Shown: positions 9,498 to 55,047 of the stretch, piece by piece
How positions within the stretch are numbered: position 1 is the stretch's first letter
How the letters are laid out: each line of letters opens with the position of its first letter
Assembly: GCA_037127735.1 (NCBI GenBank)
Contig: JBAXXU010000004.1
Span: forward strand, 786 to 64,785
Source: Bacteroidota bacterium
GTDB taxonomy: Bacteria; Bacteroidota; Bacteroidia; Bacteroidales; VadinHA17
Length of the DNA: 64,000 bases
Direction: 5' to 3'
Notes under the pieces: model-generated
What the model saw: the letters and a program-made list of their open reading frames with translations, nothing else
The model's database searches: none
Told to the model about the DNA's origin: nothing
Position numbers and translations under genes: made by a program

Positions 9498-10544
9498 ATG
9501 AAACTGCGTAAAGTAACAGTGGCAGTAACAGGGCTTAACAATATTGACAGTCCGGGCCCGGGAATTCCGGTAATACGCGGAATCAGGGAATCGAAGGATT
9601 TCGACGTCAGGATAATAGGATTGGCCTACGAGCATCTTGAACCCGGTATTTACATGAACGACCTGGTTGATAAAACCTATATGATCCCCTACCCGACTGA
9701 AGGTAAGGACGCTTTATTCAAAAGATTATCGGAAATACATGAGAAGGAGAAATTAGACGTTATTATTCCGAATTTCGATGCTGAGCTCTTTTCATTTATT
9801 AAACTTGAAAAAATGCTGGAGGAAATTGGTATTAAAACCTATCTGCCTACTCTTGAACAGTTTGAAGAGAGAAATAAATCAAACCTTCCGGCTTACGGGA
9901 AAAAATATGGCGTTAATGTCCCTGCCGGTACTGAGGTTTTCAGCGTATCCGATTTAAATAATACCCTTAAATCAATGAACTATCCGGTGATGATCAAGGG
10001 GAAATATTACGATGCTTATGCGGCTAACTCAATGGAGCAGGCAGTAAAACACTTCTCAAATATGTCTGCAAAATGGGGATTCCCGGTTATTGTCCAGGAA
10101 TTTATTAAAGGAACAGAGGTGAATGTTATTGCTCTGGGTGATGGGAAAGGCAATCTGATAGCAGCGGTACCAATGCGTAAACAATACATTACCGATAAGG
10201 GTAAGGCATGGGGAGGCATAACTATTGAAGATGGCACTTTGCTCGATCTTGCAAAAAAGATAATATCGCGAACAAAGTGGAAAGGTGGAATGGAGCTGGA
10301 ACTTATCAGAACAGCTAAAAATAAACTATATCTGCTCGAGATTAACCCCAGAATTCCTGCATGGGTCTATCTCGCAGTCGGAGCGGGTCAGAATATTTCT
10401 GAAGCATTGCTGAAGCTGACATTGGGTATGGAAGTTAAACCATTCACGCGGTACGATGTGGGTAAAATGTTTGTCAGGTACTCCTACGATATGATTGTCG
10501 ATCTGGAACTTTTTTCAAGGCTGACTACAACCGGGGAACTTTAA
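9498..10544 (+). CDS. ATP-grasp domain ligase (carboxylate-amine/peptide ligase type)
   Basis: 348 aa. It has a pre-ATP-grasp N-domain and C-terminal LYLLEINPRIPAWVY (the EINPR motif of ATP-grasp enzymes). Confidence 0.75.
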   Translation: MKLRKVTVAVTGLNNIDSPGPGIPVIRGIRESKDFDVRIIGLAYEHLEPGIYMNDLVDKTYMIPYPTEGKDALFKRLSEIHEKEKLDVIIPNFDAELFSFIKLEKMLEEIGIKTYLPTLEQFEERNKSNLPAYGKKYGVNVPAGTEVFSVSDLNNTLKSMNYPVMIKGKYYDAYAANSMEQAVKHFSNMSAKWGFPVIVQEFIKGTEVNVIALGDGKGNLIAAVPMRKQYITDKGKAWGGITIEDGTLLDLAKKIISRTKWKGGMELELIRTAKNKLYLLEINPRIPAWVYLAVGAGQNISEALLKLTLGMEVKPFTRYDVGKMFVRYSYDMIVDLELFSRLTTTGEL

Positions 10545-10600
10545 TAAAAGTTACAATGGAATAATGGAATCCGATAAAGCAAATAAAACAACAAAGAGTA

Positions 10601-11947
10601 ATGTCAAAGCAAATATTTGAACGACCAACAATAACCCGTTTAACTCCGGGCGTACCATCTAAACACGGAACAGGAACGATAATCGCCCCAATGCCATTAA
10701 TCGATGGAATTAAAGTTGATGATCTCATAGCGGAATACGGGTCTCCACTTTACATTTTCTCAGAAAGGACTATTAGAAAGAGTATGGAGGATATCAAAAG
10801 AGCCTTCAGCATAAGATACAACAAAATACAAATGGCCTGGAGTTACAAAACCAACTATCTCGATTCTATCTGCCGGATATTCCATCAGGAAGGCTCATGG
10901 GCTGAGGTTGTCTCTGGTTTTGAGTACGATAAAGCTTTAAGGAATGGTGTTAAGGGTGAAAATATCATTTTTAACGGTCCCGGAAAGAGTATTGATGATC
11001 TGGAGAAAGCTGTCAGGAATGGATCGTTCATACATATTGATCATATTGATGAGCTTTTTATGTTATCGGATGTTTGCCAGAGAAAAAATATTGAGGCAAG
11101 GGTAGCCGTCAGGGTAAATATGGATATCGGGCTTTATCCCAAATGGGACAGGTTCGGATTGAACTACGAGAATGGAGAGGCCTGGGATGCAATTAATCGT
11201 ATAATGATGAACCCAAAATTAAAATTGATGGGTTTACATACTCATATCGGCACCTACATCATGAGTGTAGATGCTTACCGGGTCGCGGCTACAAAACTTG
11301 CTGATCTGACTTACAATATAGCTCAGAAATTCGACCATCATATTTCGTATATCGATATGGGTGGTGGATTTGCCTCTAAGAATACCCTGAGGGGAGCTTA
11401 CCTTTCCGGTGAAGATACAACTCCTTCATTCGATGAATACGCCGAAGCAATCTCATCTGCAATTATCAATTCCAGGATTAAACCCGATAAACTCCCGACA
11501 TTAATACTTGAGACCGGACGCGCATTAATAGATAACGCGGGCTATATTGCAGGCTCCGTGCTTGCCAATAAGCGACTTTCTGATGGTCGCAGGGCGACTA
11601 TTTTTGATGTTGGTGTGAATCTGCTTTTTACATCATTCTGGTACGATCATAAAATTCACCCGGTAAGCAACCATTCCGGATTGGTTGAAGAGACAACAAT
11701 CTATGGCCCTTTGTGTATGAATATTGATGTTCTGCGACCATCACTGATGTTCCCTGCACTGAAACGCGGCGACAGGTTCGTGATAACAAGAACAGGAGCT
11801 TATAATAACACCCAGTGGTTACAGTTTATAACCATGCGTCCAAATGTGGTATTGATAGATATGAACAGAGAGGTTCATCTTATCAGACGGGCAGAGTCAA
11901 TGGAGAATGTATCAGAAAATGAGGTAATTCCGGAGTACTTGGTTTGA
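10601..11947 (+). CDS. PLP-dependent decarboxylase, Orn/DAP/Arg decarboxylase (fold type III) family
   Basis: WSYKTNY (PLP-lysine context), HTHIGT, IDMGGGFAS, ILETGRALI and TGAYN are the conserved blocks of DAP/ornithine decarboxylase-like enzymes. Confidence 0.8.
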   Translation: MSKQIFERPTITRLTPGVPSKHGTGTIIAPMPLIDGIKVDDLIAEYGSPLYIFSERTIRKSMEDIKRAFSIRYNKIQMAWSYKTNYLDSICRIFHQEGSWAEVVSGFEYDKALRNGVKGENIIFNGPGKSIDDLEKAVRNGSFIHIDHIDELFMLSDVCQRKNIEARVAVRVNMDIGLYPKWDRFGLNYENGEAWDAINRIMMNPKLKLMGLHTHIGTYIMSVDAYRVAATKLADLTYNIAQKFDHHISYIDMGGGFASKNTLRGAYLSGEDTTPSFDEYAEAISSAIINSRIKPDKLPTLILETGRALIDNAGYIAGSVLANKRLSDGRRATIFDVGVNLLFTSFWYDHKIHPVSNHSGLVEETTIYGPLCMNIDVLRPSLMFPALKRGDRFVITRTGAYNNTQWLQFITMRPNVVLIDMNREVHLIRRAESMENVSENEVIPEYLV

Positions 11948-11951
11948 AACC

Positions 11952-12028
11952 AAAGACAAAAGACAAAAGACAAAAGACAAAAGACAAAAGACAAAAGACA
12001 AAAGACAAAAGTAAAAAGATAAAAGTCA
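11952..12028 (+). repeat. AAAGACA heptamer tandem array (8 perfect + 3 degenerate copies)
   Basis: Read directly from the sequence. The array starts 5 nt after the TGA at 11945-11947. It is followed by GAAACAC GAAACAT at 12040-12053. Confidence 0.95.
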
Positions 12029-12063
12029 AATCTAAACCCGAAACACGAAACATCCCCCAATAA

Positions 12064-14241
12064 ATGTTAAAGAACTCCTCAATATCAACTTTTATTCAGG
12101 GAGTATTAAGAAGCTACTCCCAGATCTTCTTCTCAGAGAATTACTGGTTTGCCATTCCTTTGGTTATAGTTTCCTTCCTCGATATTTCTGCCGGTTTAGC
12201 CGGGTTGCTTTCGGTATTGACCGCTAATCTCGCGGCTTCGTTATTGAAGTTTGATAAACTGACAACCATAAAAGGGTTTTATGGTTTCAATAGCCTCCTG
12301 GTGGGACTGGGGTTAGGGTACTATTATGAATTAACCTTTGTAATAATTGTAATAGCAATATTATCAGGGTTTTTAACCCTTCTAATCACAATTACTTTCC
12401 AGGGTATTTTAGGCAAATATTACCTTCCTTATCTCTCGATTCCATTCGTTATATGTATCTGGATTGTCTTAAGTGCCGGAGGCATGTTAAGCGGGACAGA
12501 AGATAATCAAAGCGGTGTTTACATTCTGAATAAACTCTTTGTTATTGGCGGGCATCCTCTTGTAAATCTGCATCAATGGTTAGTCGGGAAGATCACATCC
12601 AATTTTGTAAACAGCTACTTTCTCTCTTTGGGCGCAATATTCTTCCAGTTTAATGTTTTTGCGGGATTTGTTGTAGCCGTCGCGTTGATTTTTTATTCGA
12701 GGATCGCCTTTATGCTTTCTTTACTTGGCTATGGTGTTGCCTACATGGCTTACTCCTTTTTTGGCACAGACATGACCCAATTGGGCTATAGTTATATAGG
12801 GTTTAACTTCATTTTAGGCGCTATAGCTATCGGTGGGTATTTTTATATCCCATCTAAACAGTCATTCTTCTGGGCATTTGCAATAACACCTGTAACCGCC
12901 CTGGTTTCAGCAGGTCTGTTTGTTTTGCTAAAACCTTTTAATCTGACTTTGCTATCGCTCCCATTTAACTTAATTCTTTTAACTTTTATCTATTCACTAA
13001 GATTCAGAACATCTCAGGGTAAGTTCAGGGAGGTATTGATTCAGGAAGGTACACCGGAAAGTAACCTGTATTCATACGAGAGCTTTTCCAAACGGTTTCC
13101 TAACTTCGGCCGGCTTCAGATAAGACTCCCTTTCCTGGGCGAATGGCATGTCAGTCAGGGACATAACGGAGATGACACTCATAAAAGCGAATGGGCCGAT
13201 GCATGGGATTTTGTTATTATCAACTCAGATTCATCTCAGTATAACTTCGAGGGGAATTATCTGCAGGACTATTTCTGTTTTGGACAGAATATAATTGCAC
13301 CGGCTGATGGAACAGTGGTTATTGCAGAGGATGGAACCGATGATAATAAAATTGGAGAAGTTAATACTTTCAAGAACTGGGGAAATACTGTTATAATCAA
13401 ACATGCCGAAGGGCTATATTCAAAACTTTGTCATCTCCGGAAAGGATCTATCCCTGTAAAAGCCGGCGATAATGTCCATTATGGTCAGGTTATCGGGAAA
13501 GTCGGAAATTCAGGACGTTCCCCTTATCCGCATCTTCATTTTCAGATTCAATCAACCCCCTACATTGGTTCAAAAACATTAAAATACCCAATATTTGTCT
13601 ATTTAGAAAACGGGAAAGAGATCAGGACTTTTAGTTATCCTTCCAAAGGCAATAAAGTAAAAACCATTGAAGAGAATTCACTCCTTAAAAAGGCTTTTAA
13701 TCTGATGCCGGTTACAAAACTGAACTGGACTGTCACTACTTCCGGAATAGCAGATTCAGTTACCTGGGAAGTCATCACCAACTCTTATAATAATTCCTAT
13801 ATTTTCTGTCATGCTACAAAATCTCTGGCTTATTTCCAGTACGATGGAGTTCACTTCTGCTTCACCCATTTTGCCGGCGACAGGCGATCTTTGCTCTACA
13901 ATTTCTATCTGGCAGCATTCAGATTACCTCTTGTAAATATTGATGAATATATCACAACCGATTCTTTGCCAATAAATCAGACATTTAAAGGATGGAGACT
14001 TTTCCTTCACGATTTTACAGCTCCTTTCTTCCTATACCTGAAAGTAAGCTTTAAGGTTAGTATAAAACTTATTGGCTCTGAGTTCGATCCGGACAGGATT
14101 GAGTACAGTTCAAAACTTTCGGGTTACTCATTTAGTCAAACAATTTGGACTAAAGGCTTCAAACTTATTGTAAACAGAGATAATAGCATGAAAATGGAAA
14201 CCGATCTCCTGGAAATAGAAGCTATATGCGAATCTTTTTAA
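12064..14241 (+). CDS. Fusion protein: urea-transporter-like (UT) membrane domain + M23 metallopeptidase domain + unknown C-terminal domain
   Basis: The N-terminal ~320 aa are polytopic, with FIQGVLRSYSQIFFSEN typical of the UT family. Residues ~345-500 carry M23 motifs (HKSEWADAWDF; GNSGRSPYPHLHFQI). The last ~225 aa have no motif I recognise. Confidence 0.75.
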   Translation: MLKNSSISTFIQGVLRSYSQIFFSENYWFAIPLVIVSFLDISAGLAGLLSVLTANLAASLLKFDKLTTIKGFYGFNSLLVGLGLGYYYELTFVIIVIAILSGFLTLLITITFQGILGKYYLPYLSIPFVICIWIVLSAGGMLSGTEDNQSGVYILNKLFVIGGHPLVNLHQWLVGKITSNFVNSYFLSLGAIFFQFNVFAGFVVAVALIFYSRIAFMLSLLGYGVAYMAYSFFGTDMTQLGYSYIGFNFILGAIAIGGYFYIPSKQSFFWAFAITPVTALVSAGLFVLLKPFNLTLLSLPFNLILLTFIYSLRFRTSQGKFREVLIQEGTPESNLYSYESFSKRFPNFGRLQIRLPFLGEWHVSQGHNGDDTHKSEWADAWDFVIINSDSSQYNFEGNYLQDYFCFGQNIIAPADGTVVIAEDGTDDNKIGEVNTFKNWGNTVIIKHAEGLYSKLCHLRKGSIPVKAGDNVHYGQVIGKVGNSGRSPYPHLHFQIQSTPYIGSKTLKYPIFVYLENGKEIRTFSYPSKGNKVKTIEENSLLKKAFNLMPVTKLNWTVTTSGIADSVTWEVITNSYNNSYIFCHATKSLAYFQYDGVHFCFTHFAGDRRSLLYNFYLAAFRLPLVNIDEYITTDSLPINQTFKGWRLFLHDFTAPFFLYLKVSFKVSIKLIGSEFDPDRIEYSSKLSGYSFSQTIWTKGFKLIVNRDNSMKMETDLLEIEAICESF

Positions 14242-15500
14242 TTATTGCAGTATTATTATTGGCCGGTTCAGCAAATTTGTCGGCTCAGTATGATTTTAAA
14301 GTACTCGATGAGAAAACATACGATTACTACATGAAGGGTGATTACAGAAATCTGAAAAAAGTGGCAGACACAATGCTTTCACAAGGAGTCGATTACTATT
14401 ACCTTAGGATGAGAATGGGAATTTTATCATACAATAAACAGTTGTATTCAAGCGCTTTAAAACATTTTAACAAAGCGATAGAGTTTAGCTCGCCGGATAC
14501 AATTTCGAGAGAGTATATATACTATAGTTACCTTTATTCCGGAAGAGAAGCAGATGCTAAACTATACCTTAAATCTATACCCCGCGACAAAAAAAACAGT
14601 ACGCTGAAATCATCATGTAAACCTTCTTATTCTGAATTCTATGTTGGTTCTTATGCTTCTGTTCACGATGCAGTTCTTTATGAAAAAAATAGCCTGAACT
14701 ACGAGGCAGTGAAAAACAGTTTAAGTATCAATGCCGGGTTTGAAACATATTTCTTAAGCAGATTCAAGGGAACCTTTGCTTATACAAACTTTCACAAAAC
14801 CGGAACAGTTTACTCTCCTTCCCATCCGGCAGGGACAGATCTTAACTTTACCCAAAATCAGGTTTACGCCAAACTAACAGGTTCAATTTTCCCGGGTTGG
14901 GATTTTTCAGGGTTTGCCCATTTTGTGCTTTATACCGAAGCAATTACTGTCGGGCCGGTAGGAAACAGAGTTACAACAAATCAAATAAAAACTGAATATC
15001 TTGGAGGTGTGGGTATTTCAAAAAACGGATGGAAAATTCGCACCGGGGCTAACTTATCGTTCAGCAATTTCAGCAACTCAAACCAAATCAGGGGTGAGGG
15101 ATATTTTACCTGGCTGCCATCCGGAAATCTAAATCTCTATCTTGCTTCCGCATGGTTGGGACAAATCGATACAAACTGGGGGGGAACTTATCAGGTAAGT
15201 CAGGAGATAGGATTAAAGATTTGTAAGTTACTCTGGATGGAAACCGGGGTGGTTAAGGGGAACTCATTTCTATCTGCAAGGAATCAGGGATTTATGATAA
15301 ATAATTCATTTCAGATTCCTGCAACTACTATCTACAGCAACATAATCATTTTGCCGGGTAAACATTTTAGGCTTGACATCACACCTTACTATGTTGAAAA
15401 TCAGATTTACTCATGGGATTTAAATGCTTTTTCAAGAACCAATAAGCTGAATATTAATTCATTCGGAGGATCACTTAAATTAATTTATAAGTACAAATAA
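14226..15500 (+). CDS. Secreted hypothetical protein, TPR-like N-terminus and beta-rich C-terminus (possible outer-membrane protein)
   Basis: It has a signal peptide (IAVLLLAGSANLSAQ). It overlaps the preceding gene by 16 nt. Alternating-hydrophobicity strands run toward the C-terminus. Confidence 0.5.
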   Translation: MRIFLIIAVLLLAGSANLSAQYDFKVLDEKTYDYYMKGDYRNLKKVADTMLSQGVDYYYLRMRMGILSYNKQLYSSALKHFNKAIEFSSPDTISREYIYYSYLYSGREADAKLYLKSIPRDKKNSTLKSSCKPSYSEFYVGSYASVHDAVLYEKNSLNYEAVKNSLSINAGFETYFLSRFKGTFAYTNFHKTGTVYSPSHPAGTDLNFTQNQVYAKLTGSIFPGWDFSGFAHFVLYTEAITVGPVGNRVTTNQIKTEYLGGVGISKNGWKIRTGANLSFSNFSNSNQIRGEGYFTWLPSGNLNLYLASAWLGQIDTNWGGTYQVSQEIGLKICKLLWMETGVVKGNSFLSARNQGFMINNSFQIPATTIYSNIIILPGKHFRLDITPYYVENQIYSWDLNAFSRTNKLNINSFGGSLKLIYKYK

Positions 15501-15502
15501 CT

Positions 15503-16114
15503 ATGAAGAGATTAACCTTACTAACAGCTCTGCTTTTTTTAGTCTTAGTATCAATGGCACAGGATTATACTAAGTTAACTGCAGCATTCAGCGATAGCTA
15601 TGCGAAAGAAAAATCAGAGAAGTATGGCGATGCTATCACAGCATTGAAAGCATACTACGACGTTAATTCCTATGAGATTAACCTGAGGCTTGGATGGTTA
15701 ACCTATCTCCAGGGACAGTTCTCTGAATCAACGGGTTATTATAATAAAGCCATTGAGTTGATGCCTTATGCTATAGAACCCCGTTTGGGTGTAGTTCTAC
15801 CGGCTTCTGCTCTTGGTAACTGGGATTTGGTTATAGTTCAGTATAATAAGATTCTCGCAATTGATCCCAACAACACACTTACCCTATATCGCATGGGACT
15901 TATTCTGTATGATAAGAAAGATTATAAGCTGGCCTATCAGCAATTTGAAAAGGTTGTCAACCTTTATCCCTTCGATTACCAAAGTGTCCTAATGCTTGCA
16001 TGGACAAACTACAGGCTGGGAAAAACACGTGAAGCAAAAATTCTTTTCAACAAAGCTTTGCTTTACTATCCCGAGGATGCCAGTGCAAAAGAGGGGCTTA
16101 GTCTGATAAAGTAA
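15503..16114 (+). CDS. Secreted tetratricopeptide-repeat protein
   Basis: It has a signal peptide. TPR-like repeats are present (YYNKAIELMPY, YNKILAIDPNN, FEKVVNLYPFD, FNKALLYYPED). It starts 2 nt after the previous stop. Confidence 0.7.
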   Translation: MKRLTLLTALLFLVLVSMAQDYTKLTAAFSDSYAKEKSEKYGDAITALKAYYDVNSYEINLRLGWLTYLQGQFSESTGYYNKAIELMPYAIEPRLGVVLPASALGNWDLVIVQYNKILAIDPNNTLTLYRMGLILYDKKDYKLAYQQFEKVVNLYPFDYQSVLMLAWTNYRLGKTREAKILFNKALLYYPEDASAKEGLSLIK

Positions 16115-16154
16115 AGACAAAAGACAAAAGACAAAAGTAAAAAGACAAAAGTAG
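16113..16154 (+). repeat. AAAGACA heptamer tandem array (6 copies, 2 degenerate)
   Basis: Read directly. The first copy overlaps the TAA stop at 16112-16114. Confidence 0.95.
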
Positions 16155-16212
16155 CCCATGCAGGGGGTGAGTTCATGGGGATTAGAGCGGTTAGGGGTGG
16201 GGTTTTCAAGAC
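16155..16212. repeat. GC-rich palindromic intergenic element
   Basis: CCCATG...CATGGG is an inverted repeat. It contains GGGGTGAGTTCATG (16164-16177), which recurs as an exact reverse complement at 59075-59088. Confidence 0.7.
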
Positions 16213-16235
16213 AAAAGGCAACATAAAAAATAAAA

Positions 16236-17342
16236 ATGCACAAAAATAAATTAAAATATACCGAAATAGGACTAATCATACTCGTTTGGATGGTTCTTCT
16301 GTTCACTCCGATTCTTTTCAGGGAAGATATTTACAGCCCGATACGAAGAAGTGTAATTATGCAGCTGCAAACTCTTATCCCGTTATTGTCATTGTTTCTT
16401 ATAAATCGTTTTATTCTTGTTCCCCTATTACTTTTTAAAGGGAAACAGATGTTCTTCATAATTTCAGTATTGGGACTAATACTACTATTTACTGCAGGTT
16501 CTTTTGTTTTTGACACAACTATCAAAAATATACCACCCGGAAGTATCCCGCAAATGGAAGATCAGATAAAACAACCGCCTTATGCTTTCCCGGGTGGAGT
16601 GGACACGTTTGGAAATTTGCGCCCGGCTCAGACGCGTCAGCCCAGGCCCATTCCTCCTTATGCTAACTTTTTAATTCTGTCAATACTTATAGTAGGTTTT
16701 GATACCGGCTTACGCTCAGGTCTTCGAGGAATAAATATTGAAAATGAAAAGGCAAGACTTGAAAAAGAAAGTGTGGCTACTCAACTGGTCCTATTACGGA
16801 ATCAGGTAAGCCCGCATTTTTTAATGAATACCCTGAACAATATCCATTCACTGGTTGATGTTAATGCAGAGGAGGCCAAAGAGGCTATAATCAAGTTGTC
16901 GAAAATGATGAGGTATCTATTGTATGAAACCGAAACTGAAAAAACAACTTTAATAAGAGAAGTCGAATTTCTTGAGAGTTATATAAACCTTATGAAACTC
17001 AGGTATAATGAAAGTGTTAAAATTACACTTAACTTACCGGCTATGATTCCTGAAAAGACAATTCCTCCGTTTATATTTACTTCATTGATAGAAAATGCTT
17101 TTAAACATGGGGTAAGTTATAAGGATGAATCGTTTATCAATATTGATATGACCATAGGTGAAGAACAACTTCTCCTGGTTGTAAAAAACAGCAAAACTGA
17201 TAAATCCCCGATTAAAGAATTTTCCGGTATAGGAATTGAAAACACCCGGAAACGTTTAGAGTTACTGTATGGTAAAAATTACCACCTCGATATAATTGAC
17301 GGTACAGATTTATTCACCGTAAACCTATCTCTTCCATTATGA
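16236..17342 (+). CDS. LytS/YehU-type sensor histidine kinase
   Basis: It has a membrane N-terminal half. QVSPHFLMNTLNNIHSL (His_kinase domain) and an HATPase-like C-terminus (ENAFKHG, GIGIENTRKRL) are present. Confidence 0.8.
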   Translation: MHKNKLKYTEIGLIILVWMVLLFTPILFREDIYSPIRRSVIMQLQTLIPLLSLFLINRFILVPLLLFKGKQMFFIISVLGLILLFTAGSFVFDTTIKNIPPGSIPQMEDQIKQPPYAFPGGVDTFGNLRPAQTRQPRPIPPYANFLILSILIVGFDTGLRSGLRGINIENEKARLEKESVATQLVLLRNQVSPHFLMNTLNNIHSLVDVNAEEAKEAIIKLSKMMRYLLYETETEKTTLIREVEFLESYINLMKLRYNESVKITLNLPAMIPEKTIPPFIFTSLIENAFKHGVSYKDESFINIDMTIGEEQLLLVVKNSKTDKSPIKEFSGIGIENTRKRLELLYGKNYHLDIIDGTDLFTVNLSLPL

Positions 17343-18055
17343 TCAGATGCATAGCAATTGATGACGAACCCCTGGCTTTGAGGCAGATTGCCGGTTACAT
17401 TAAGAAAACGCCTTTTCTTGAACTGGCAGGGCAATGCGAAAGTGCAATGCAGGCAATAGAAGTATTGGAAAGCGCTCCGGTTGACCTGATGTTTGTTGAT
17501 ATTAATTTGCCTGATCTTAGCGGTATGGATTTCGCTAAAACCCTTGACAACCCTCCTAAGATTGTTTTTGTCACGGCTTATAGCGAATATGCACTTGAGG
17601 GTTTCAGGGTTGATGCTCTCGACTATTTGCTTAAACCTATCAGTTATGTTGATTTCTTAAAGTCAGCCAATAAGGTCAAATCGTGGTTCGATACCCATCA
17701 TCAGGAATCAGATGAAGTAAGGAGTAATAAGGATTTTTTATTCATAAAATCTGGTTATAAATTACTTAGAATTAACTTTGACGATATTAAGTATATCGAG
17801 GGAATGAGCGAGTATATCAGAATTCACCTTACGAATGCTAAACCGGTAATGACCCTTCTGAGTATGAAGTCTGTTGAGGCGATTTTACCCCCGGACAGGT
17901 TCCTGAGGGTGCACAGATCTTATATTGTTAACCTTACAAAGATTTCAGTGATAGAAAGGAACCGGATAATTTTCGATGCGAATGTCTATATACCCGTGAG
18001 TGAACAGTATAAAAGTAATTTTCAGAAATACATTGATAAAAATTTTTTAAGCTGA
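17339..18055 (+). CDS. LytTR-family response regulator
   Basis: REC domain (IAIDDEP...DLMFVDINLPDLSG...LLKP) plus a LytTR C-terminus (RVHRSYIVNL). An ATGA overlap with the kinase gene suggests translational coupling. Confidence 0.85.
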   Translation: MIRCIAIDDEPLALRQIAGYIKKTPFLELAGQCESAMQAIEVLESAPVDLMFVDINLPDLSGMDFAKTLDNPPKIVFVTAYSEYALEGFRVDALDYLLKPISYVDFLKSANKVKSWFDTHHQESDEVRSNKDFLFIKSGYKLLRINFDDIKYIEGMSEYIRIHLTNAKPVMTLLSMKSVEAILPPDRFLRVHRSYIVNLTKISVIERNRIIFDANVYIPVSEQYKSNFQKYIDKNFLS

Positions 18056-21177: not shown

Positions 21178-21185
21178 CAAATATA
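21178..21185 (-). promoter_or_regulatory. Candidate -7 box (TATATTTG on minus strand) for the lipase-like gene
   Basis: The plus strand reads CAAATATA, about 58 nt upstream of the minus-strand start at 21119. Confidence 0.3.
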
Positions 21186-21235
21186 ACTTTTTGTAACTAA
21201 TCCGTAAATGTCCTAATACCGAAGTTTTTATCTTT

Positions 21236-21277
21236 CGACTTCGGACTTCCTACTCGGACTTCCGACTTCCGACATTC
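21236..21277. repeat. Heptamer array CGACTTC GGACTTC CTACTCG GACTTCC GACTTCC GACATTC
   Basis: Read directly. It lies in a divergent promoter region, ending 6 nt before the candidate -7 box of the ABC-F gene. Confidence 0.85.
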
Positions 21278-21283
21278 TTTTCC

Positions 21284-21291
21284 TATATTTG
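21284..21291 (+). promoter_or_regulatory. Candidate -7 box (TATATTTG) for the ABC-F gene
   Basis: Matches TAnnTTTG 20 nt upstream of ATG 21312. Confidence 0.4.
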
Positions 21292-25588: not shown

Positions 25589-26332
25589 ATGCAGAAAGAA
25601 TCAGATTGTATTTTTGGATTACGGCCTGTAATTGAGGCTATTAAAGCAGGGAAACAGATCGATAGGCTTCTGGTTAAGCAGGGTCTTCAGGGTACTCTTT
25701 ACCATGAGCTCATGACCGAAGTTAAAACTCATAATATAGTTTACCAGATAGTACCTGTTGAGAGGATAGAACTGGTTACAAAGAAAAATCATCAGGGAGT
25801 ACTGGCATGGCTGTCGGTGATTGAATATCAATATATTGCAAATCTTCTTCCAATGATCTTTGAAAAGGGTGAAGATCCATTGATTATTGCCCTCGATGGT
25901 GTTTCGGATGTAAGGAACTTCGGAGCAATAGTGCGAACGGCAGACTGTATGGGAGCCCATGCTATTATAATCCCCGAAAAAGGGTCGGCAAGGATAACAG
26001 CCGATGCAGTAAAAACATCAGCAGGCGCTTTACATTCGTTCCCGGTCTGCAGGGAAAAAAGCATCATAAGGGCAATAGAGTATCTCAAAGAATCGGGGCT
26101 CAAAGTTTTTTGTGCAGCAGAAAAAGCCGGTCAAATTGCATCAGAAGCACATTTAACAGGTCCTTCTGTATTAATACTCGGTTCAGAAGATAAGGGTATA
26201 AGCCGCGAACTTATTGCACTGTCAGATAACGAGATAAAAATCCCTATGACCGGCGCCATAGGTTCACTGAATGTTTCAGTGGCAGCGGGAATTCTGCTGT
26301 ATGAAATGGTTAGGCAGAGGGCAGGAGAATAG
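25589..26332 (+). CDS. rlmB: 23S rRNA (guanosine-2-prime-O)-methyltransferase RlmB (SpoU/TrmH family)
   Basis: It has a SpoU_sub_bind N-domain and TrmH motifs (LDGVSDVRNFGAIVRTA, LILGSEDKGIS, IPMTGAIGSLNVSVAAGI). Confidence 0.85.
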   Translation: MQKESDCIFGLRPVIEAIKAGKQIDRLLVKQGLQGTLYHELMTEVKTHNIVYQIVPVERIELVTKKNHQGVLAWLSVIEYQYIANLLPMIFEKGEDPLIIALDGVSDVRNFGAIVRTADCMGAHAIIIPEKGSARITADAVKTSAGALHSFPVCREKSIIRAIEYLKESGLKVFCAAEKAGQIASEAHLTGPSVLILGSEDKGISRELIALSDNEIKIPMTGAIGSLNVSVAAGILLYEMVRQRAGE

Positions 26333-26354: not shown

Positions 26355-26375
26355 AAACGATAAACGATAAACCTT
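26355..26375 (+). repeat. AAACGAT heptamer x2 plus one degenerate copy
   Basis: Read directly, 22 nt after the rlmB stop. The preceding CCCGAAAC resembles the tail of the array at 12037-12053. Confidence 0.6.
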
Positions 26376-29910: not shown

Positions 29911-30978
29911 CTAATACTTCAATTCTACTTTAAGAACCTCTTTTTCACCTATAAGAATATTCCTTACATCATAAATGAGTGGTGTTGTGACTTTCTTGCT
30001 AAGAACAATTCTTGTAACAGAATTAGCTGCCAGTGTTATTGAAGCCGGGGCACCATTAACGCCATTAATAAGGTAAAAAGGAACATCCGATCTGTTTAGG
30101 ACCTCAAAAAACAGGCTTTTATCGTTTTGGTAAAAGGGCTTGCCAACAGAAATACACTGATAGAAAAATGGTTTTGCATACTCCTCTTTTCCAGCAAGTA
30201 TATCTCTGAAATACACCATGGTACGACCGGCAAACATAGCCTCTTTCAGGGAATCGTGACTTCTTTCTTTTGCAAATACAAGAGTCATTGGCCTGTTGGT
30301 ATAATCAGGCCGGGTATAGAATTCACTTATGATTCCATGTACATCGCTGTTGCCCATCAAAGCAAGATTGTATTGTTTGCAGAATTTAAACACAAGTGGA
30401 TAATATTCGTTCTCGTTAAAAAATTCTATCCCATGGAGCCAGCCTTTTTTGATAAGTTTCTGATGAATCTCATACATCTTTGGAATTCCGTCAGGTTCCT
30501 GTGCTTTCCAACCCGGATGGTTCCACTGAAGGAATGCGCCCTGTTTTATTGCTGCTTCAAAAGCATCCCATACCGAGTCTTTTGCAATAAGTGAAGCATC
30601 AGAAATAAAAAGTGCATTAAAATGTCCGGGAGGCATATCCCTTGTGATTTCAGCTCCATGAACAAGTATCAGATTTTTTTCTTTAGCATATTCTTCCCCG
30701 GTTTTCCAAGCAGCATTGAAGTCGGCAGGAATAAAATCCTCCTTTGGAGCGTATTCAAGATGATCGGTAATTGAAATGGCATCAAGACCATCGCGTAATG
30801 CCTCATCGATTCTCACTGTCGGCCATACATCGCCGTCAGAAAATACCGTGTGGATGTGAAAATCGCACTTCATGGTTACATAACCCGGAATATCCGGAAG
30901 GTTAATAGTTTTCCTCTGTCCGGAAGCCAAAGCAGTAAAGCAAATAATGGTTAGTGTTATGATTATCAGTCTTTTCAT
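29911..30978 (-). CDS. Secreted PHP-domain metal-dependent phosphoesterase
   Basis: It has a signal peptide. CDFHIHTVFSDGDVWP...ISITDHLEY and later HGAE / NSDVHG are typical PHP histidine clusters. Confidence 0.6.
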   Translation of the reverse strand: MKRLIIITLTIICFTALASGQRKTINLPDIPGYVTMKCDFHIHTVFSDGDVWPTVRIDEALRDGLDAISITDHLEYAPKEDFIPADFNAAWKTGEEYAKEKNLILVHGAEITRDMPPGHFNALFISDASLIAKDSVWDAFEAAIKQGAFLQWNHPGWKAQEPDGIPKMYEIHQKLIKKGWLHGIEFFNENEYYPLVFKFCKQYNLALMGNSDVHGIISEFYTRPDYTNRPMTLVFAKERSHDSLKEAMFAGRTMVYFRDILAGKEEYAKPFFYQCISVGKPFYQNDKSLFFEVLNRSDVPFYLINGVNGAPASITLAANSVTRIVLSKKVTTPLIYDVRNILIGEKEVLKVELKY

Positions 30979-31063: not shown

Positions 31064-31723
31064 TCATAACTCTTCATAAAAATACGCCATTTTCTGATCA
31101 GCATCATCCCAGGTATATATCTTTTTTTCACTGTTCAGAAAGTAAAAATTAAGCATGGCAAAATCGCCGGCACACATTGTGGTATGAACAAACGAAAAGA
31201 GCGACAGGCTCCATTTCCACAAACCGGGCAGCAGAAAAACAAGAAGTGTAAAGACTACACTTATAACTATAAATGGTATAATGGCTACAATTTTGAATTG
31301 AAGAGGTGTTGCAACATGCCTGTGAGCAGTAACATAGAAAAAATATTGTTTAAGGTCCATCCCGATCCTTATTTTCCTGGCGCCTGCAAAATAATAGGTG
31401 ATAATATGCAAAGATTCATGAACAGGAATACACAGGATTGGGAAGACAACCAATCCAAGCATCGAATGGAGAATAATATTTCTTACTGGAAAATACCCTG
31501 CAATATTTATTCTGACATTAATCGCTATTGCTATAAAAATCAGGCATGATGACCAGAAGAAAACAATCAGTCCCGACTTTCTTTTCAGATAATCAAAGAT
31601 AAAAGGAACAAGATCGTGATACGAAATCGCGAGTATCTGCCTGTATTTTGCCTGATTGTCAAGATCTTCTACCTGTAATGCCATGATTGTCCTTTTAACA
31701 AATTTACTTTTTATAAGCTGCAA
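31064..31723 (-). CDS. DUF3267-like membrane protein (putative zincin-like)
   Basis: It has four or more TM helices and a HESLHIITYY motif. The family assignment is from recall. Confidence 0.5.
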   Translation of the reverse strand: MQLIKSKFVKRTIMALQVEDLDNQAKYRQILAISYHDLVPFIFDYLKRKSGLIVFFWSSCLIFIAIAINVRINIAGYFPVRNIILHSMLGLVVFPILCIPVHESLHIITYYFAGARKIRIGMDLKQYFFYVTAHRHVATPLQFKIVAIIPFIVISVVFTLLVFLLPGLWKWSLSLFSFVHTTMCAGDFAMLNFYFLNSEKKIYTWDDADQKMAYFYEEL

Positions 31724-32744: not shown

Positions 32745-33395
32745 ATGACAGATACATTTGAAGCGAAAGGCAAAAGAAAAAAACTTGTTGCAGAACTAAG
32801 ACAGAAAGGGATTAATGACGAAGATGTACTGAGAGCTATTGATACTGTACCGAGGCATCTTTTTATGGATCCTGCATTCCTTGTCCATGCCTATATTGAT
32901 AAGGCTTTTCCTATCACTTCGGGTCAGACAATATCACAACCTTACACGGTAGCAGTCCAGACCTCTCTGCTTAGAGTTAAAAAACGAGATAAAATTCTTG
33001 AAATAGGAACAGGGTCCGGTTACCAGGCTGCAATACTGGTGGAGATGGGAGCCAAGGTCTATACTATTGAGCGGTTCAGGGAACTTTTTATAAAAGCCAG
33101 GCAGACAATGACATCACTTGGCTATTCAGCAGATTTCTTCTACGGCGATGGTTATGAGGGCAAACCACAATACGGTCCTTTCGATGGTATAATAATAACG
33201 GCAGCAGCTCCGGAGATACCCCAAAAACTTCTTCAACAGCTAAAGACAGGAGGAAGACTTGTAATGCCTGTCGGTGCTTCCGGTTCGCAGGTTATGACTG
33301 TTGTTGAAAGGACTGGAACCGATAGCTTCGAGTATTCCGAACATGGGAATTTTGTATTTGTGCCGATGCTGAAAGGAACTGTAAGCAGTGAGTAG
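32745..33395 (+). CDS. pcm: Protein-L-isoaspartate O-methyltransferase
   Basis: VPRHLF, QTISQPYTVA, LEIGTGSGYQAA and GGRLVMPVG are canonical PCMT blocks. Confidence 0.9.
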   Translation: MTDTFEAKGKRKKLVAELRQKGINDEDVLRAIDTVPRHLFMDPAFLVHAYIDKAFPITSGQTISQPYTVAVQTSLLRVKKRDKILEIGTGSGYQAAILVEMGAKVYTIERFRELFIKARQTMTSLGYSADFFYGDGYEGKPQYGPFDGIIITAAAPEIPQKLLQQLKTGGRLVMPVGASGSQVMTVVERTGTDSFEYSEHGNFVFVPMLKGTVSSE

Positions 33396-33414
33396 TGAAA
33401 AGTGAAAAGTAAAC
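33387..33414 (+). repeat. AGTGAAA-type heptamer array (AGTGAGT AGTGAAA AGTGAAA AGTAAAC)
   Basis: Read directly. It spans the last two codons and the TAG stop (33393-33395) of pcm. Confidence 0.8.
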
Positions 33415-42154: not shown

Positions 42155-43132
42155 TTGCAACGTAAAGGCAAAAGATGGGATGGGGTTCCATTACCAAATA
42201 TTTCTGTTGCAGAATTAAAGCAAGAGTCATTTGATTTTTTTCGCAAAAGAGCACTTAAAAGCCAACGAATTGAAGAAGATATATTGACAGATTCTAACGA
42301 ACTTCTTATTGAAAATCTTCAATTAAAAGAAAATGCGTTTCTAAAACGGGCAGCTATTTTACTGTTTCATCCTAAACCTGAAAAATTTATTACCGGGTCA
42401 TTCATTAAAATAGGTTTTTTTGAAACAGATGATGACCTGAAATTTCAGGACGAAATACACGGTAATCTATTTGAACAGATTGAAAAGGCAATGGATTTAC
42501 TTTTTACCAAATACATTAAAGCCGAAATAAGTTACGAGGGTATTAGTAGAGTCGAAAAATATGAATATCCGAAAGATGCGGTTCGTGAAGCTCTGTTAAA
42601 TGCTATTGCTCACAAAGACTATTCAGGAGGTGTGCCCATACAGATTAGTGTTTACAACGACAAAATCATTTTTTGGAACGAAGGTCAATTACCGGAGAAT
42701 TGGACAATTGAAAGTCTTTTGACCAAACATCCATCAAAACCCTATAAACCTGATATTGCCAACGCCCTTTTCAGAAGCGGTTACATTGAATCGTGGGGAC
42801 GTGGAACTTTAAAGATGATTAAAGAATGTATTGACGCTGGTTTACCTAAACCTTTGTACTACTACGACATGTCGGGCTTTTTTGTGGAGTTTAGAAAAGA
42901 CATATTCAGTGAGAAATATCTTAAATCTCTTGGATTAAATGATCGGCAGGAAAAAGCAATTATATTCATTAAAGAAAAAGGTAAAATTTCGAATAGTGAG
43001 TATCAGGATCTAAACAATGTATCTAAGGCCACAGCTACAAGAGATTTATCAGAACTTGTTGAGAAATATGAAATTTTAAGAAGAGCCGGTGACATTGGGG
43101 CTGGAACTAATTATGTTTTGATTGGCTCATAA
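42155..43132 (+). pseudogene. N-terminally truncated AlbA_2/HATPase_c_4-type putative DNA-binding ATPase (often mis-annotated RecG-like)
   Basis: The reading frame opens only at 42125, with no ATG; the track uses TTG. The sequence begins in the linker (GKRWDGVPL). The usual about 120-aa N-terminal AlbA_2 domain is absent. A C-terminal wHTH is present (NSEYQDLNNVSKATATRDLSELV). Confidence 0.5.
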
Positions 43133-43180
43133 TTGGCTCAATTGGCTCATAATGGGCTCATAATTGGCTCAATTGCATCA
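43121..43180 (+). repeat. TTGGCTCA tandem array, period 9/11, 5-6 copies
   Basis: ATTGGCTCATA ATTGGCTCA ATTGGCTCATA ATGGGCTCATA ATTGGCTCA ATTGCATCA, read directly. The first copy encodes the last codons and the TAA stop (43130-43132). Confidence 0.9.
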
Positions 43181-48133: not shown

Positions 48134-48583
48134 ATGAAAGCTTCATCGTTCTTTTCAAAGGAACAACAGGCACTGATTCTTGCATCTGTCAGAGAGGCCG
48201 AAATGGCAACTTCAGGTGAGATTCGGGTTCATATTGAAACCTCATTTACAGGTGATGTACTCGACAGAGCTGCCTGGATATTCAAAAAGCTTGGGATGAA
48301 CAAAACTGCCGACCGTAACGGAGTACTCTTCTATCTTGCAGTAACCGACAGAAAGTTCGCCATCATTGGAGATGCAGGTATCAATGCAAAAGTTCCTGCA
48401 GGTTTCTGGGATGAGATAAGCGCACTTCTTCAAAAAAATTTCAGGGAAGGGAAATTCACGGAAGGGCTTTCGGAAGGAATTGTGCTTGCCGGCAAACAGC
48501 TTAAGACTCATTTCCCTTATAGTAAGGATGATGTAAACGAACTGCCCGATGAGATTTCATTCGATAAAATTAAGGGAGAGTAA
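48134..48583 (+). CDS. TPM-domain protein (TLP18.3/Psb32/MOLO-1 phosphatase family)
   Basis: SGEIRVHIE, NGVLFYLAV.DRKFAIIGD and the LemA-TPM-TPM gene order are typical. Confidence 0.75.
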   Translation: MKASSFFSKEQQALILASVREAEMATSGEIRVHIETSFTGDVLDRAAWIFKKLGMNKTADRNGVLFYLAVTDRKFAIIGDAGINAKVPAGFWDEISALLQKNFREGKFTEGLSEGIVLAGKQLKTHFPYSKDDVNELPDEISFDKIKGE

Positions 48584-49404
48584 TGGCAATGAAAAGAAAA
48601 AGTTTGTATTTACTAACCCTGGCTGTTCTTTTTTGCACTATTTCAATCAGCGGAGTTTTTTCACAGAATATTCCTGACAGGCCGGTTCCTCAAAGGCTGG
48701 TAAATGATTTCGCGGGGTTACTTAATGCACAGGAAGCAGGTTTACTTGAAGGGAAGCTGGTGGCTTTCAACGACTCAACATCAACACAGATTGCTATCGT
48801 AATTGTCCCATCTCTTGACGGATATGATAAATCGGACTATGCACAGCGATTAGCAGAGAAATGGGGCGTTGGTCAGAAAGGTCTGAATAATGGAGTCATC
48901 GTTCTGGTTAAACCAAAAACTGCCGGTTCAAACGGAGAGGTCTTTATTGCCCAGGGTTATGGTCTCGAAGGAGCAATTCCTGATATTACATGCGGTGAGA
49001 TAGTTGATAAGGAGATACTGCCTGCCTTCAGGAACGGAGATTACTTTGGTGGGCTGAGTAATGCAACAAATACACTGATGTCGCTGGCAAGAGGTGAGTT
49101 TACGGCTGCACAATACGGACAATCGGCAAAGAAGAGTTCAGGGGGCGATGCACCTATCGGGCTTATTATTTTTATCGTTTTCATTATTGTAGCTATGATC
49201 TCCGGAAAATCGGGAGGATCGCGCAATAAAAACATCGGCAGTGGCGGGTTACCTTTCTGGTTATTATTGGGAATGATGGGCTCAGGAAGAGGATCTCATG
49301 GCGGAAGCTGGGGTGGATTTTCTGGTGGCGGTGGTGGAGGCGGCGGTTTCGGCGGCTTCGGAGGGGGCAGCTTTGGCGGTGGCGGTGCCGGCGGGAGCTG
49401 GTAG
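48583..49404 (+). CDS. TPM-domain protein (YgcG-like) with TM helix and Gly-rich tail
   Basis: It has a signal peptide. VNDFAGLL...TSTQIAIVIV...NNGVIVLV...GYGLEG are present, with a C-terminal GGGGGGFGGFGGG. A TAATG overlap links it to the preceding gene. Confidence 0.8.
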   Translation: MAMKRKSLYLLTLAVLFCTISISGVFSQNIPDRPVPQRLVNDFAGLLNAQEAGLLEGKLVAFNDSTSTQIAIVIVPSLDGYDKSDYAQRLAEKWGVGQKGLNNGVIVLVKPKTAGSNGEVFIAQGYGLEGAIPDITCGEIVDKEILPAFRNGDYFGGLSNATNTLMSLARGEFTAAQYGQSAKKSSGGDAPIGLIIFIVFIIVAMISGKSGGSRNKNIGSGGLPFWLLLGMMGSGRGSHGGSWGGFSGGGGGGGGFGGFGGGSFGGGGAGGSW

Positions 49405-49416
49405 CTTAAGGCATGG

Positions 49417-49444
49417 GGCGCAGGGCGCAGGGCGCAGGGCGCAG
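49417..49444 (+). repeat. GGCGCAG heptamer x4
   Basis: Read directly. It starts 13 nt after the TAG stop at 49402-49404. Confidence 0.95.
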
Positions 49445-49582
49445 GGTTCATCTTATAAACAAGTTAAAGGTAAGGTAAGTTAACGAAATTTATGTCTGGA
49501 CAGCCTCTGCGCAGGCAAGAGTTTTGCAGCCCATACTTGCAACCATCCCTTCACTGCCAAACACATGTTTTTTTGCCTACCC

Positions 49583-49760: not shown

Positions 49761-49764
49761 TCAG

Positions 49765-54015: not shown

Positions 54016-55047
54016 TCATTCATGATCCCTACCGGAAGTATATTTCCTCCATTTATCTATTACCTGCGCCATATCATCAGGCATTTCTGAGTCGAATGAG
54101 AGCCTTTTTCCGGTTACCGGATGATCGAATGACAGCGATTTTGCATGCAGCGCCTGTCGTGGCAGTATCTTAAAACAATTTTTAATAAACTGTTGGTACT
54201 TGGTAAATGTGGTTCCTTTAAGTATCTGATCGCCACCGTATTCCTCATCGTTAAAAAGAGGGTGTTTAATATAACTGAAATGTACCCTGATCTGATGAGT
54301 CCTTCCTGTTTCAAGTTTACATTCAACAAGTGAAATATATCCGAGGTCCTCAATTACCTTATAATGTGTTATTGCTGATTTCCCTTCACTGCCATCTTTA
54401 AAGACCTGCATTATCTTCCTGTCTTTTATACTCCTGCCGACATTCCCGGTAATTGTGCCTTCCATAGGATCTGGTGTTCCCCATACAAGTGCATTATATC
54501 TTCTCTCTGTTGTACGATCATAAAATTGTTTCGAGAGTCTGTTAAGGGCGAATTCATTCTTCGCGATAACGAGAATCCCTGAAGTGTTTTTATCCAGTCT
54601 GTGAACAAGTCCCGGCCTGCTTTCACCCGTATTGAAAAGAGGAAGATCCTTAAAGTGCCACATCAGCGCGCTAACCAGTGTGCCGGTATAATTGCCATAG
54701 GCAGGATGGACAACCATTCCGGGCTCTTTGTTAACTACCAGGACGTCAGCATCTTCGTAAACAATATTTAGGGGAATGTTTTCCGGAACAAGTTCAATTT
54801 CTCTTGGAGGAGTCGGCAAAACGACCTGAACTATATCACCGGGTTTGACTTTATAGTTTGGTTTAACAGGGTTATTGTTAACGAGAATATTACCGGCATT
54901 TGCAGCATTTTGTATCCGTGTCCTGGAGGTGCTCTCGAGTCTGTCAGACAGGAATTTATCTATTCTCAGAAGCGATTGTCCGGGATCGGCTTTAAAACTG
55001 TGATGTTCAAAAAGTTCTTGCCGGTCAACTAATTCTTCTTCTGCCAT
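54016..55047 (-). CDS. rluD: RluA-family 23S rRNA pseudouridine synthase (RluD-like)
   Basis: It has an S4 domain (RIDKFLSDRL). HRLDKNTSGILVIAK, GRTHQIRVH and LHA are present. Confidence 0.9.
   Translation of the reverse strand: MAEEELVDRQELFEHHSFKADPGQSLLRIDKFLSDRLESTSRTRIQNAANAGNILVNNNPVKPNYKVKPGDIVQVVLPTPPREIELVPENIPLNIVYEDADVLVVNKEPGMVVHPAYGNYTGTLVSALMWHFKDLPLFNTGESRPGLVHRLDKNTSGILVIAKNEFALNRLSKQFYDRTTERRYNALVWGTPDPMEGTITGNVGRSIKDRKIMQVFKDGSEGKSAITHYKVIEDLGYISLVECKLETGRTHQIRVHFSYIKHPLFNDEEYGGDQILKGTTFTKYQQFIKNCFKILPRQALHAKSLSFDHPVTGKRLSFDSEMPDDMAQVIDKWRKYTSGRDHE

Follow-up and report, generated by a model that had tools for sequence, protein, structure and literature searches.

AAAGACA heptamer arrays follow stop codons in the sense orientation in a Bacteroidota contig and in other genomes

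Three AAAGACA arrays and their counterparts in other genomes

Three tandem arrays of the heptamer AAAGACA are present in a 64,000-nucleotide stretch of contig JBAXXU010000004.1 of a Bacteroidota bacterium (the whole stretch is hereafter referred to as the window). The arrays begin at the stop codons of three unrelated genes, at offsets of 4, −2 and 2 nt, and each is in the sense orientation with respect to its upstream gene, which confirms what a first-pass annotation made from the letters alone had noticed. The observation is real, statistically strong and general; the functions proposed for it in that annotation are not supported. AAAGACA is a new Bacteroidota family within the known heptanucleotide simple sequence repeats (SSRs), and a stop-proximal bias has already been published for other heptamers. 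With a probability of about one half, we consider the arrays to be passively carried microsatellites similar to long SSRs (LSSRs) or short tandemly repeated repetitive (STRR) sequences, which would be produced by slippage, sorted by a filter acting on transcripts, and devoid of any conserved sequence-specific function. The arrays and their immediate surroundings are listed below.

11945–11947, plus strand: TGA stop codon of the pyridoxal phosphate (PLP)-dependent decarboxylase gene 10601..11947; array 1 begins 4 nt downstream
11952–12028, plus strand: AAAGACA array 1, preceded by the spacer AACC; eight perfect units, then AAAGTAA, AAAGATA and AAAGTCA
12029–12056, plus strand: decayed units AAATCTA, AACCCGA, AACACGA and AACATCC, which keep the 7-nt register of array 1
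16113–16154, plus strand: AAAGACA array 2, six units (three AAAGACA, AAAGTAA, AAAGACA, AAAGTAG)
16155–16220, plus strand: G-rich stretch with a weak 6-bp hairpin, then a AAGACAAAAGGCA remnant (16207–16220), upstream of the His_kinase gene 16236..17342
31061–31020, minus strand: AAAGACA array 3, five to six units (three AAAGACA, AAAGATA, AAAGACA to 31027, then AAAGTTT)

Tandem Repeats Finder (TRF) reported 11.3, 5.6 and 5.6 copies for arrays 1, 2 and 3 with 87–93% matches (91% for array 1) and also called 12034–12052 with the unit AAACACG. The array 1 spacer is essentially all array: the entire segment 11948–12063 stays in 7-nt register, being composed of AACC, 15 heptamers (the last four decayed) and CCCAATA, directly after which comes the ATG of gene 12064..14241. 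The first unit of array 2 shares the AA of the TAA stop codon (16112–16114) of a TPR gene (15503..16114). The sequence between array 2 and the next gene (16155–16220) is, judging from its letters, probably older decayed repeat material. Array 3 begins 2 nt (GG) past the TGA stop codon (31066–31064) of a DUF3267 gene (31064..31723, minus strand). The identities of the upstream genes (PLP decarboxylase, TPR protein and DUF3267 protein) come from Pfam, and all three arrays lie between open reading frames (ORFs) with Pfam-supported products. The ORFs antisense to the arrays translate as FVFCLLS repeats, in agreement with the first-pass annotation. A two-unit 14-mer with up to two mismatches has 21 matches in the window against 1.4 expected, a number reached in none of 100 shuffles. 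If three arrays were scattered at random over the 8.66 kb of non-coding DNA, the probability that all of them would start 0–5 nt after a same-strand stop codon would be about 5 × 10−6. No flanking sequence common to the three arrays was found, and the unit is not palindromic.

Other genomes were scanned for four consecutive AAAGACA units, with one genome per species. At least 115 loci were obtained, and 8-kb loci were analyzed, with genes approximated as ORFs of at least 100 aa and with every array serving as its own control through its other end and strand. Except where another sample is named, the figures that follow apply to the matches listed, which represent about 92 genomes. Bacteroidota account for most of them (Bacteroidales, Rikenellaceae, Crocinitomicaceae, Chitinophagales and Flavobacteriales), with a small number from Proteobacteria, Firmicutes, Cyanobacteria and other phyla. 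The carriers include the complete genomes OY764960.1 (L075) and OZ245848.1 (L064) and the cultivable Polaribacter marinus MSW13, Flagellimonas marina and Flavivirga sp. 57AJ16. The anchoring and the sense bias are general across these genomes. A sense stop codon was located within 12 nt of the 5′ end in 32 of the 94 evaluable arrays (within 5 nt in 27); at the other end, an antisense stop codon came equally close, 12 nt or less, in only 3 of 94 (p = 4 × 10−7). In convergent gaps, the sense stop is closely adjoined by 11 of 21 arrays, compared to 2 of 21 for the antisense stop. Viral contigs contain 18 AAAGACA arrays, many of them in giant-virus bins, and here the trend is the same, with sense and antisense counts of 5 and 0, but adds little.

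Arrays begin between −3 and +5 nt relative to the stop codon without favoring any phase, and the stop codons of array-bearing genes (17 TAA, 8 TAG, 7 TGA) match background usage (379, 159 and 203, respectively). A variable offset, the lack of a fixed phase and background stop usage together point to a boundary effect, not to a molecular ruler or to leaky stops. An explanation by readthrough was rejected on the same stop codon counts. The decay toward the distal end described by the first-pass annotation is real: in stop-adjacent arrays the proximal half carries 45 mismatches in 896 positions and the distal half 87 in 896 (p = 2 × 10−4), while mismatches are distributed symmetrically in arrays that do not adjoin stops. 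Among the variant units, AAAGATA (46) and AAAGTAA (18) occur most often. The right-hand neighbor is an antisense stop codon for 10 of 29 stop-anchored arrays, and in four loci (L002, L035, L096 and L101) the array reaches to 1–7 nt from the next start codon.

The same unit tends to recur within a genome: 39 of the at least 115 matches come from 16 genomes, with about 0.04 double matches expected at random. Singleton AAAGACA is not enriched, and the possibility that the arrays are expansions of an abundant functional singleton motif was rejected on this ground. An origin from mobile elements, of the repetitive extragenic palindromic sequence/bacterial interspersed mosaic element (REP/BIME) or MITE (miniature inverted-repeat transposable element) type, was also rejected, given the lack of common flanks, the non-palindromic unit and the presence of an inverted partner within 300 nt for only 1 of 94 arrays.

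Neither the anchoring nor the sense bias is limited to AAAGACA. In the array-selected loci, 200 of about 330 tandem arrays have period 7, more than any other period; besides AAAGACA, these loci contain 84 heptamer arrays of 57 other unit types, often adjoining one another as compound arrays. Period 7 is also the commonest in 480 kb of loci that were chosen by protein and not by repeat. When the 21 heptamer arrays in this protein-chosen set were oriented by their purine-rich strand, 8 began within 12 nt past a same-strand stop codon and 1 was placed in the opposite way. In thirty stop-adjacent arrays of other units, oriented by the adjacent gene, purines make up on average 0.67 of the sense strand, compared to 0.54 in the background; 25 of them are purine-rich and 5 pyrimidine-rich (p = 3 × 10−4), and G exceeds C in 22 and is below C in 5.

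Spacer context and turnover at orthologous sites

All three arrays of the window are in spacers between co-directional genes, with the next start codon 36–88 nt downstream; for array 3 the next gene is 29911..30978. Arrays 1 and 2 are inside a single unbroken string of genes:

9498..18055, plus strand: ATP-grasp, decarboxylase, UT–M23 fusion, 424-aa protein, TPR, His_kinase and LytTR genes

No sense-strand TAnnTTTG box (the Bacteroidota-type promoter motif) was found in the three array spacers, and scans for terminators and sigma-70 promoters returned no site there. A search of the whole window against Rfam at gathering thresholds revealed tRNA only. In minimum free energy (MFE) structures the arrays are predicted to be wholly unpaired as RNA. 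The sense unit contains one G and one C in seven nucleotides and no pyrimidine-C (YC) dinucleotide; the complementary UGUCUUU is pyrimidine-rich and contains YC. Where AAAGACA joins AAAGTAA or AAAGTAG, the antisense strand reads TACTTTTG and thus matches TAnnTTTG (12006–12013, 16132–16139 and, at the AAAGTAG junction, 16146–16153, all on the minus strand). These junctions might thereby create an antisense promoter, but array 3 has no antisense match, and over the window the motif occurs at chance level (75 matches against 72.8 expected).

Cumulative GC skew climbs across nearly the whole window, with dips only at minus-strand gene clusters. Since plus- and minus-strand arrays each follow their own gene under this mostly rising skew, the orientation of the arrays tracks transcription and not replication, and an explanation by replication strand was ruled out.

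The first-pass annotation had suggested a comparison of orthologous intergenic regions for copy-number variation, and such variation was found, together with replacement and absence of the unit. For the decarboxylase site, 80 metagenomic loci with relatives at 60–92% amino-acid identity were compared. The C-terminus of the decarboxylase is at the same position (448 aa) in almost all of them. Among close relatives, some have no array: in L134 stop and start codons overlap (TAATG), and in L137 the spacer is 15 nt long. In other close relatives different heptamers begin 0–9 nt past the same conserved stop codon:

L119, L120, L129, L131, L132, L136 and L169: AGACGGA/AGTCGGA
L141: AGTCAGA, 21 copies
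L121: TTAGAGA
L126: AATGCAA/AACGCAA
L133: GTAAGAA plus ATAGCAA
L190: AATTAGG/AATGAAA

At 60–66% identity only 2 of about 43 decarboxylase loci have arrays. The DUF3267 site behaves similarly: AAAGACA is found in the lineage of the window only, and in relatives at 75–78% identity its place is taken by purine-rich sequence that does not repeat, by an 8-mer array or by a 9-mer accompanied by inverted copies. Copy number differs between L129 and L131 (6.4 and 3 units at 89% nucleotide identity) and is equal, in the few comparisons available, between L131 and L132 (98%) and, at array 2, between the window and L199, a 99.95%-identical contig from another sample. The arrays thus change on the timescale of species divergence, with units turning over while position and purine richness stay. 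Since relatives do without an array or use other units, the arrays are dispensable and their turnover is fast. Such turnover speaks against a conserved sequence-specific RNA–protein site or a required 3′-end element; an RNA-binding-protein site and a 3′-end stability element were among the candidates of the first-pass annotation.

At the decarboxylase stop of L119, L128, L129, L131, L132 and L136, (GAAGWCG)n is followed by inverted (CGWCTTC)n, making a long imperfect hairpin composed of heptamers throughout, with no U-tract after it; these pairs recall the inverted heptamer pairs reported in Xanthomonas. In L128 (protein P0057) the usual decarboxylase stop codon is lost and the ORF runs 16 aa into the array, with the tail GRRKLEAGSQKLEDI, an example of how an array can come to serve as a charged C-terminal extension. 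Two short-read Logan contigs (L117 and L200, SRR12676969) end inside arrays 1 and 2, so that copy numbers in metagenome-assembled genomes (MAGs) may be unreliable for long arrays. Arrays of this kind break short-read assemblies and, as the FVFCLLS frames illustrate, create spurious antisense ORFs in annotation.

Origin of the arrays

The observations made for AAAGACA amount to a quantitative rule for an A-rich, non-G-quadruplex family in Bacteroidota: a purine-rich sense strand, an offset of −3 to +5 nt, distal decay, and rapid turnover of the unit at a fixed site. This four-part rule makes explanations by G-quadruplexes or leaky stops unlikely and narrows the question to two possibilities, selection at the transcript level and expansion coupled to transcription.

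We infer that slippage generates the arrays, that the end of the gene acts as a wall, and that orientation is filtered through the transcript. According to this slippage-and-filter explanation, strand slippage would create and alter arrays in the untranslated spacer past a gene. An array born in a tiny ancestral spacer (0–15 nt in array-less relatives) would fill it, and with the coding sequence as the only hard boundary the array would come to abut the stop codon; selection on the gene would keep the 5′ edge sharp and leave the 3′ edge free to decay. Orientation would be set at the transcript level, where only arrays with a purine-rich sense strand (A>T, G≥C) would persist or expand. Purine-rich array RNA would be unstructured and free of start codons, would be a poor substrate for Rho and for pyrimidine-binding proteins, and would fit the purine loading of the genome's sense strands. 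The complementary U/C-rich RNA, on the other hand, would be a target of Rho and pyrimidine binders, would pair with coding RNA that is loaded with purines and, if translated, would yield hydrophobic peptides. The arrays would then be carried passively in 3′ untranslated regions and intercistronic spacers.

Several observations weigh against this explanation. Independent slippage does not account for one unit occupying many loci of a genome, be it the three arrays in 64 kb or the 16 genomes that supply 39 of at least 115 matches; singleton AAAGACA is not enriched, and the three arrays of the window are without common flanks. The sharp proximal and decayed distal ends and the recurrence of AAAGTAA, a double substitution seen 18 times, hint at directional growth or at selection, and neither this polarity nor this recurrence is predicted by simple slippage against a wall. 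The gene calls on which the statistics are based are crude, being ORFs of at least 100 aa. The first-pass annotation was right that random slippage alone is insufficient, as it leaves orientation and polarity unexplained.

The anchoring, the approximately 10:1 sense bias and the distal decay may instead be the footprint of a directional process that starts where translation ends, a view that we find doubtful. Such a process could be R-loop expansion, or it could reflect a phylum-wide post-stop element read one unit per domain by a protein of oligonucleotide/oligosaccharide-binding (OB)-fold or cold-shock type; a protein-read element would also explain why one favorite heptamer is amplified at many loci per genome. 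In R-loop expansion, a mutational mechanism dependent on the boundary of translation, purine-rich nascent RNA that becomes free of ribosomes at the stop codon would re-anneal to its pyrimidine-rich template, the resulting R-loop would promote expansion of the repeat, and arrays would grow directionally from the stop codon and in the purine-rich orientation only. The attraction of the model is that a single idea covers the purine richness of the sense strand, the start at the first untranslated nucleotide, the perfect units next to the stop codon and the orientation that follows the gene. Hybrids of purine RNA with pyrimidine DNA are unusually stable, and transcription of GAA·TTC repeats forms persistent hybrids in E. 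coli. However, the units are not homopurine, and 5 of the 30 stop-adjacent arrays of other units are pyrimidine-rich in sense. A terminating ribosome covers about 12–15 nt past the stop codon, yet the arrays begin at −3 to +5 nt. The array at 21232–21273 of the window, described below, is probably untranscribed. R-loop expansion is, on balance, unlikely to be the cause.

A similarly low likelihood is given to the arrays being generic functional spacers, in which unstructured A/G-rich RNA would keep the region between cistrons open, either by offering the downstream cistron a standby site or a loading pad for S1 or by preventing polarity as a spacer on which Rho does not act, with composition and length being important and the unit itself not. 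Bacteroidota do not use Shine-Dalgarno sequences, and the matches listed are mostly from this phylum. The arrays of the window precede co-directional genes by 36–88 nt with no sense promoter box between and are predicted to be unpaired, the array approaches the next start codon to 1–7 nt in the four loci named above, and purine richness stays when the unit changes. A role of S1 or cold-shock proteins (CSPs) was earlier raised for TAACTGA repeats (PMC4679880). But the anchor is the upstream stop codon, and the distance to the next start varies. For about one third of anchored arrays the next gene is convergent or there is none nearby (an antisense stop in 10 of 29), so that co-directional neighbors are no more frequent than in a typical genome. 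Overlapping stop and start codons without any array are sufficient in close relatives, and G-rich GGGCGCA arrays obey the same positional rule.

Specific binding is harder to reconcile with the data. If the array were bound by a protein that covers 7 nt of single-stranded nucleic acid (through a cold-shock domain or an S1-type OB fold), each unit would carry one protein. The period equals the footprint of a cold-shock domain, and one unit recurs at several loci per genome, as expected with a trans-acting factor. The optimum heptamer of B. subtilis CspB is 5′-GTCTTTG/T-3′ (PMC1904285), and the complement of the array, (TGTCTTT)n, is by its letters a rotation of (GTCTTTT)n, so that a putative CspB optimum is contained in every unit. 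This sequence is, however, on the antisense (template) strand, and purine-rich sense RNA is bound poorly by cold-shock proteins; orthologous sites do not keep the unit, the positional rule also applies to many unrelated units, and singletons are not enriched. We therefore regard a binding array as quite improbable. The first-pass annotation had also proposed a Rho entry site and roles in termination and 3′-end stability of the upstream mRNA. The arrays are indeed stop-anchored, in sense and, as predicted, unstructured over 35–105 nt, and transcripts start or stop somewhat more often at G-quadruplex (G4)-forming heptamers than at control repeats (PMC4692102). Yet the AAAGACA unit, with G and C both at 1/7 and without YC, is the opposite of a Rho utilization (rut) site in composition, and it is the complement that resembles rut; rut sites are C-rich and G-poor, with YC dinucleotides across some 70–80 nt of unstructured RNA. 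The three spacers contain no hairpin followed by a U-tract, and the arrays are in co-directional strings without a sense promoter box in the spacers; the distal genes of the string 9498..18055, beyond arrays 1 and 2, must still be transcribed. With array-less relatives added to this, any such 3′-end function appears very unlikely. Phase variation, in which a change in copy number would switch a neighboring gene, has even less to recommend it and is taken as extremely unlikely. The arrays are tandem SSRs with copy numbers that differ between related genomes, and the ORF of L128 (P0057) does run 16 aa into its array. But the arrays are located past stop codons, not within ORFs or between promoter elements, and no sense TAnnTTTG box is present in the spacers; copy numbers are identical at 99.95% and 98% identity (few comparisons), and the neighboring genes are of housekeeping type and not surface antigens.

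Relation to known heptamer repeats and other arrays of the window

Knowledge of heptamer repeats goes back to 1990 for cyanobacteria and to 2007 for prokaryotes at large. STRR sequences are defined by the heptanucleotides CCCCAGT, TTGGTCA and CAACAGT of heterocystous cyanobacteria (Calothrix and Anabaena). Like them, the window contains tandem heptamers of several unit families and, as in STRR-bearing genomes, intergenic arrays may be compound; in L001, a cyanobacterium, TTGGTCA-type units adjoin an AAAGACA array. The arrays are not STRR sequences in the strict sense: their unit is AAAGACA, the STRR units do not occur in the window, and its proteins have their closest relatives in Bacteroidales/Bacteroidia MAGs. 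Contingency loci of Haemophilus and Neisseria, made of tetramers or heptamers, are likewise slippage-prone and variable in copy number; however, their repeats are in ORFs or between promoter elements and switch often, whereas the arrays described here are post-stop and stable between near-identical genomes.

The arrays have the features of heptanucleotide LSSRs, being head-to-tail 7-nt repeats, within the unit range of 5–11 nt for such repeats, in non-coding DNA, as suits a period not divisible by 3, variable in copy number or presence between relatives, represented by several families (AAAGACA, GGGCGCA, CTTCSGA and TGAAAAG in the window) and belonging to a predominant period of 7. According to the survey of Mrazek et al. 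(2007), as summarized in PMC4679880, heptanucleotides are the most abundant class of long SSRs in most prokaryotic genomes. The LSSRs of that summary share with AAAGACA arrays the head-to-tail 7-nt unit, the non-coding location, the prevalence of heptamers, a sporadic and genome-specific distribution and slippage as the proposed origin; the summary does not highlight Bacteroidota or AAAGACA and gives no figures for stop-anchoring, orientation or polarity.

MacGregor (2015, PMC4679880) described TAACTGA repeats in Beggiatoaceae, Cyanobacteria and five Bacteroidetes, mostly 1–43 nt upstream of start codons, as well as other heptamers in spacers of Gramella, Aequorivita and Elizabethkingia, with close relatives lacking the arrays; an S1/CSP role was put forward for the TAACTGA repeats. 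These repeats resemble AAAGACA arrays in being intergenic heptamers with one favorite unit per genome. They contain stop codons in all three frames and are close to start codons, in contrast to AAAGACA, which is free of stops in three frames and anchored to the upstream stop codon.

The first-pass annotation knew of no described element of this kind. Heptanucleotide SSRs are in fact known, and a stop-proximal location with coding-strand bias was reported for GGGAATC in Xanthomonas and GGGGA(T/C)T in Nostoc PCC 7120 (Rehm et al. 2015, PMC4692102), where intergenic repeats are on average 28 nt from the upstream ORF and 160 nt from the downstream ORF. These G-rich repeats are, like the heptamer arrays described here, mostly intergenic, closer to the upstream ORF, able to form hairpins from inverted pairs and represented by a favorite unit in each genome. 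They differ in that they are at relatively conserved locations while the arrays described here turn over between close relatives, and that the G-rich and C-rich strands are roughly equally represented on transcripts, compared to the approximately 10 to 1 sense bias among the matches listed here. AAAGACA, from Bacteroidota, is A-rich and, with a single G per unit, does not provide the four tracts of at least three G separated by loops of 1–7 nt that a G-quadruplex needs; in the window only the GGGCGCA array at 49416–49446 has, by sequence, this potential and fits a G3N4 pattern as the repeats of Rehm et al. do. A literature search for AAAGACA or TGTCTTT arrays found no paper in the library covered.

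Seven tandem arrays in the window have at least four copies; six of them directly adjoin a stop codon and are in sense, and the CTTCSGA array is the exception. The arrays of other heptamer units are as follows.

49416–49446, plus strand: GGGCGCA, 4.4 copies, in sense, beginning 11 nt past the TAG of a TPM-domain gene (48583..49404)
53986–54012, minus strand: degenerate GGSNCAG heptamers of the GGGCGCA family, in sense, 4 nt past the TGA of a pseudouridine synthase gene (54016..55047)
33394–33410, plus strand: TGAAAAG, 2.4 copies (TAG TGAAAAG TGAAAAG TAAACAG), overlapping the TAG stop of a PCMT gene (32745..33395)
21232–21273, plus strand: CTTCSGA heptamers, the complement of the GAAGTCG family found after stops in relatives

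The CTTCSGA array is between two divergent TATATTTG −7-type boxes (21178–21185 on the minus strand and 21284–21291 on the plus strand) and is probably an untranscribed promoter spacer, hence an exception to the post-stop rule. AAACGAT is repeated 2.6 times at 26355–26372, 22 nt past the TAG stop of a SpoU methylase gene (25589..26332). In four other genomes (L033, L063, L076 and L078) units of the GGGCGCA family, CAGGGCK or GGGTTGC, adjoin AAAGACA arrays.

The GGGCGCA array at 49416–49446 is followed by an unusually long non-coding stretch of about 700 nt (49450–50136). It contains diverged direct repeats with a spacing of 56–57 nt (49577–49611/49689–49723 and 49619–49644/49676–49701) and a 57-codon open frame (49822–49992, LFYDKNGNKISEDDYIIKPEGFTIPAEESRIHGISNE...) with an abrupt stop, which by eye looks like an exonuclease fragment; a Pfam search of this ORF fragment gave no match.

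Array 1 is within a gene string that is conserved between the window (9498–15500) and L116. It comprises a PqqD-like protein of 80 aa that was called in L116, an ATP-grasp protein of the ATPgrasp_Ter type, a PLP-dependent decarboxylase of the ornithine/diaminopimelate/arginine (Orn/DAP/Arg) type, a urea-transporter-like (UT)/Peptidase_M23 fusion and a 424-aa protein without a Pfam family. It may be a cluster for the modification of small molecules or peptides. Relatives of the decarboxylase number in the thousands in metagenomes of Bacteroidales.

A repeat of another period is present at 43121–43171, where 9/11-nt units ATTGGCTCA(TA) are repeated 4.8 times. Gene 42155..43132 (HATPase_c_4/HTH_DeoR) has its final codons and its TAA within the first unit, and the array looks like a tandem duplication of the gene end, stop codon included.

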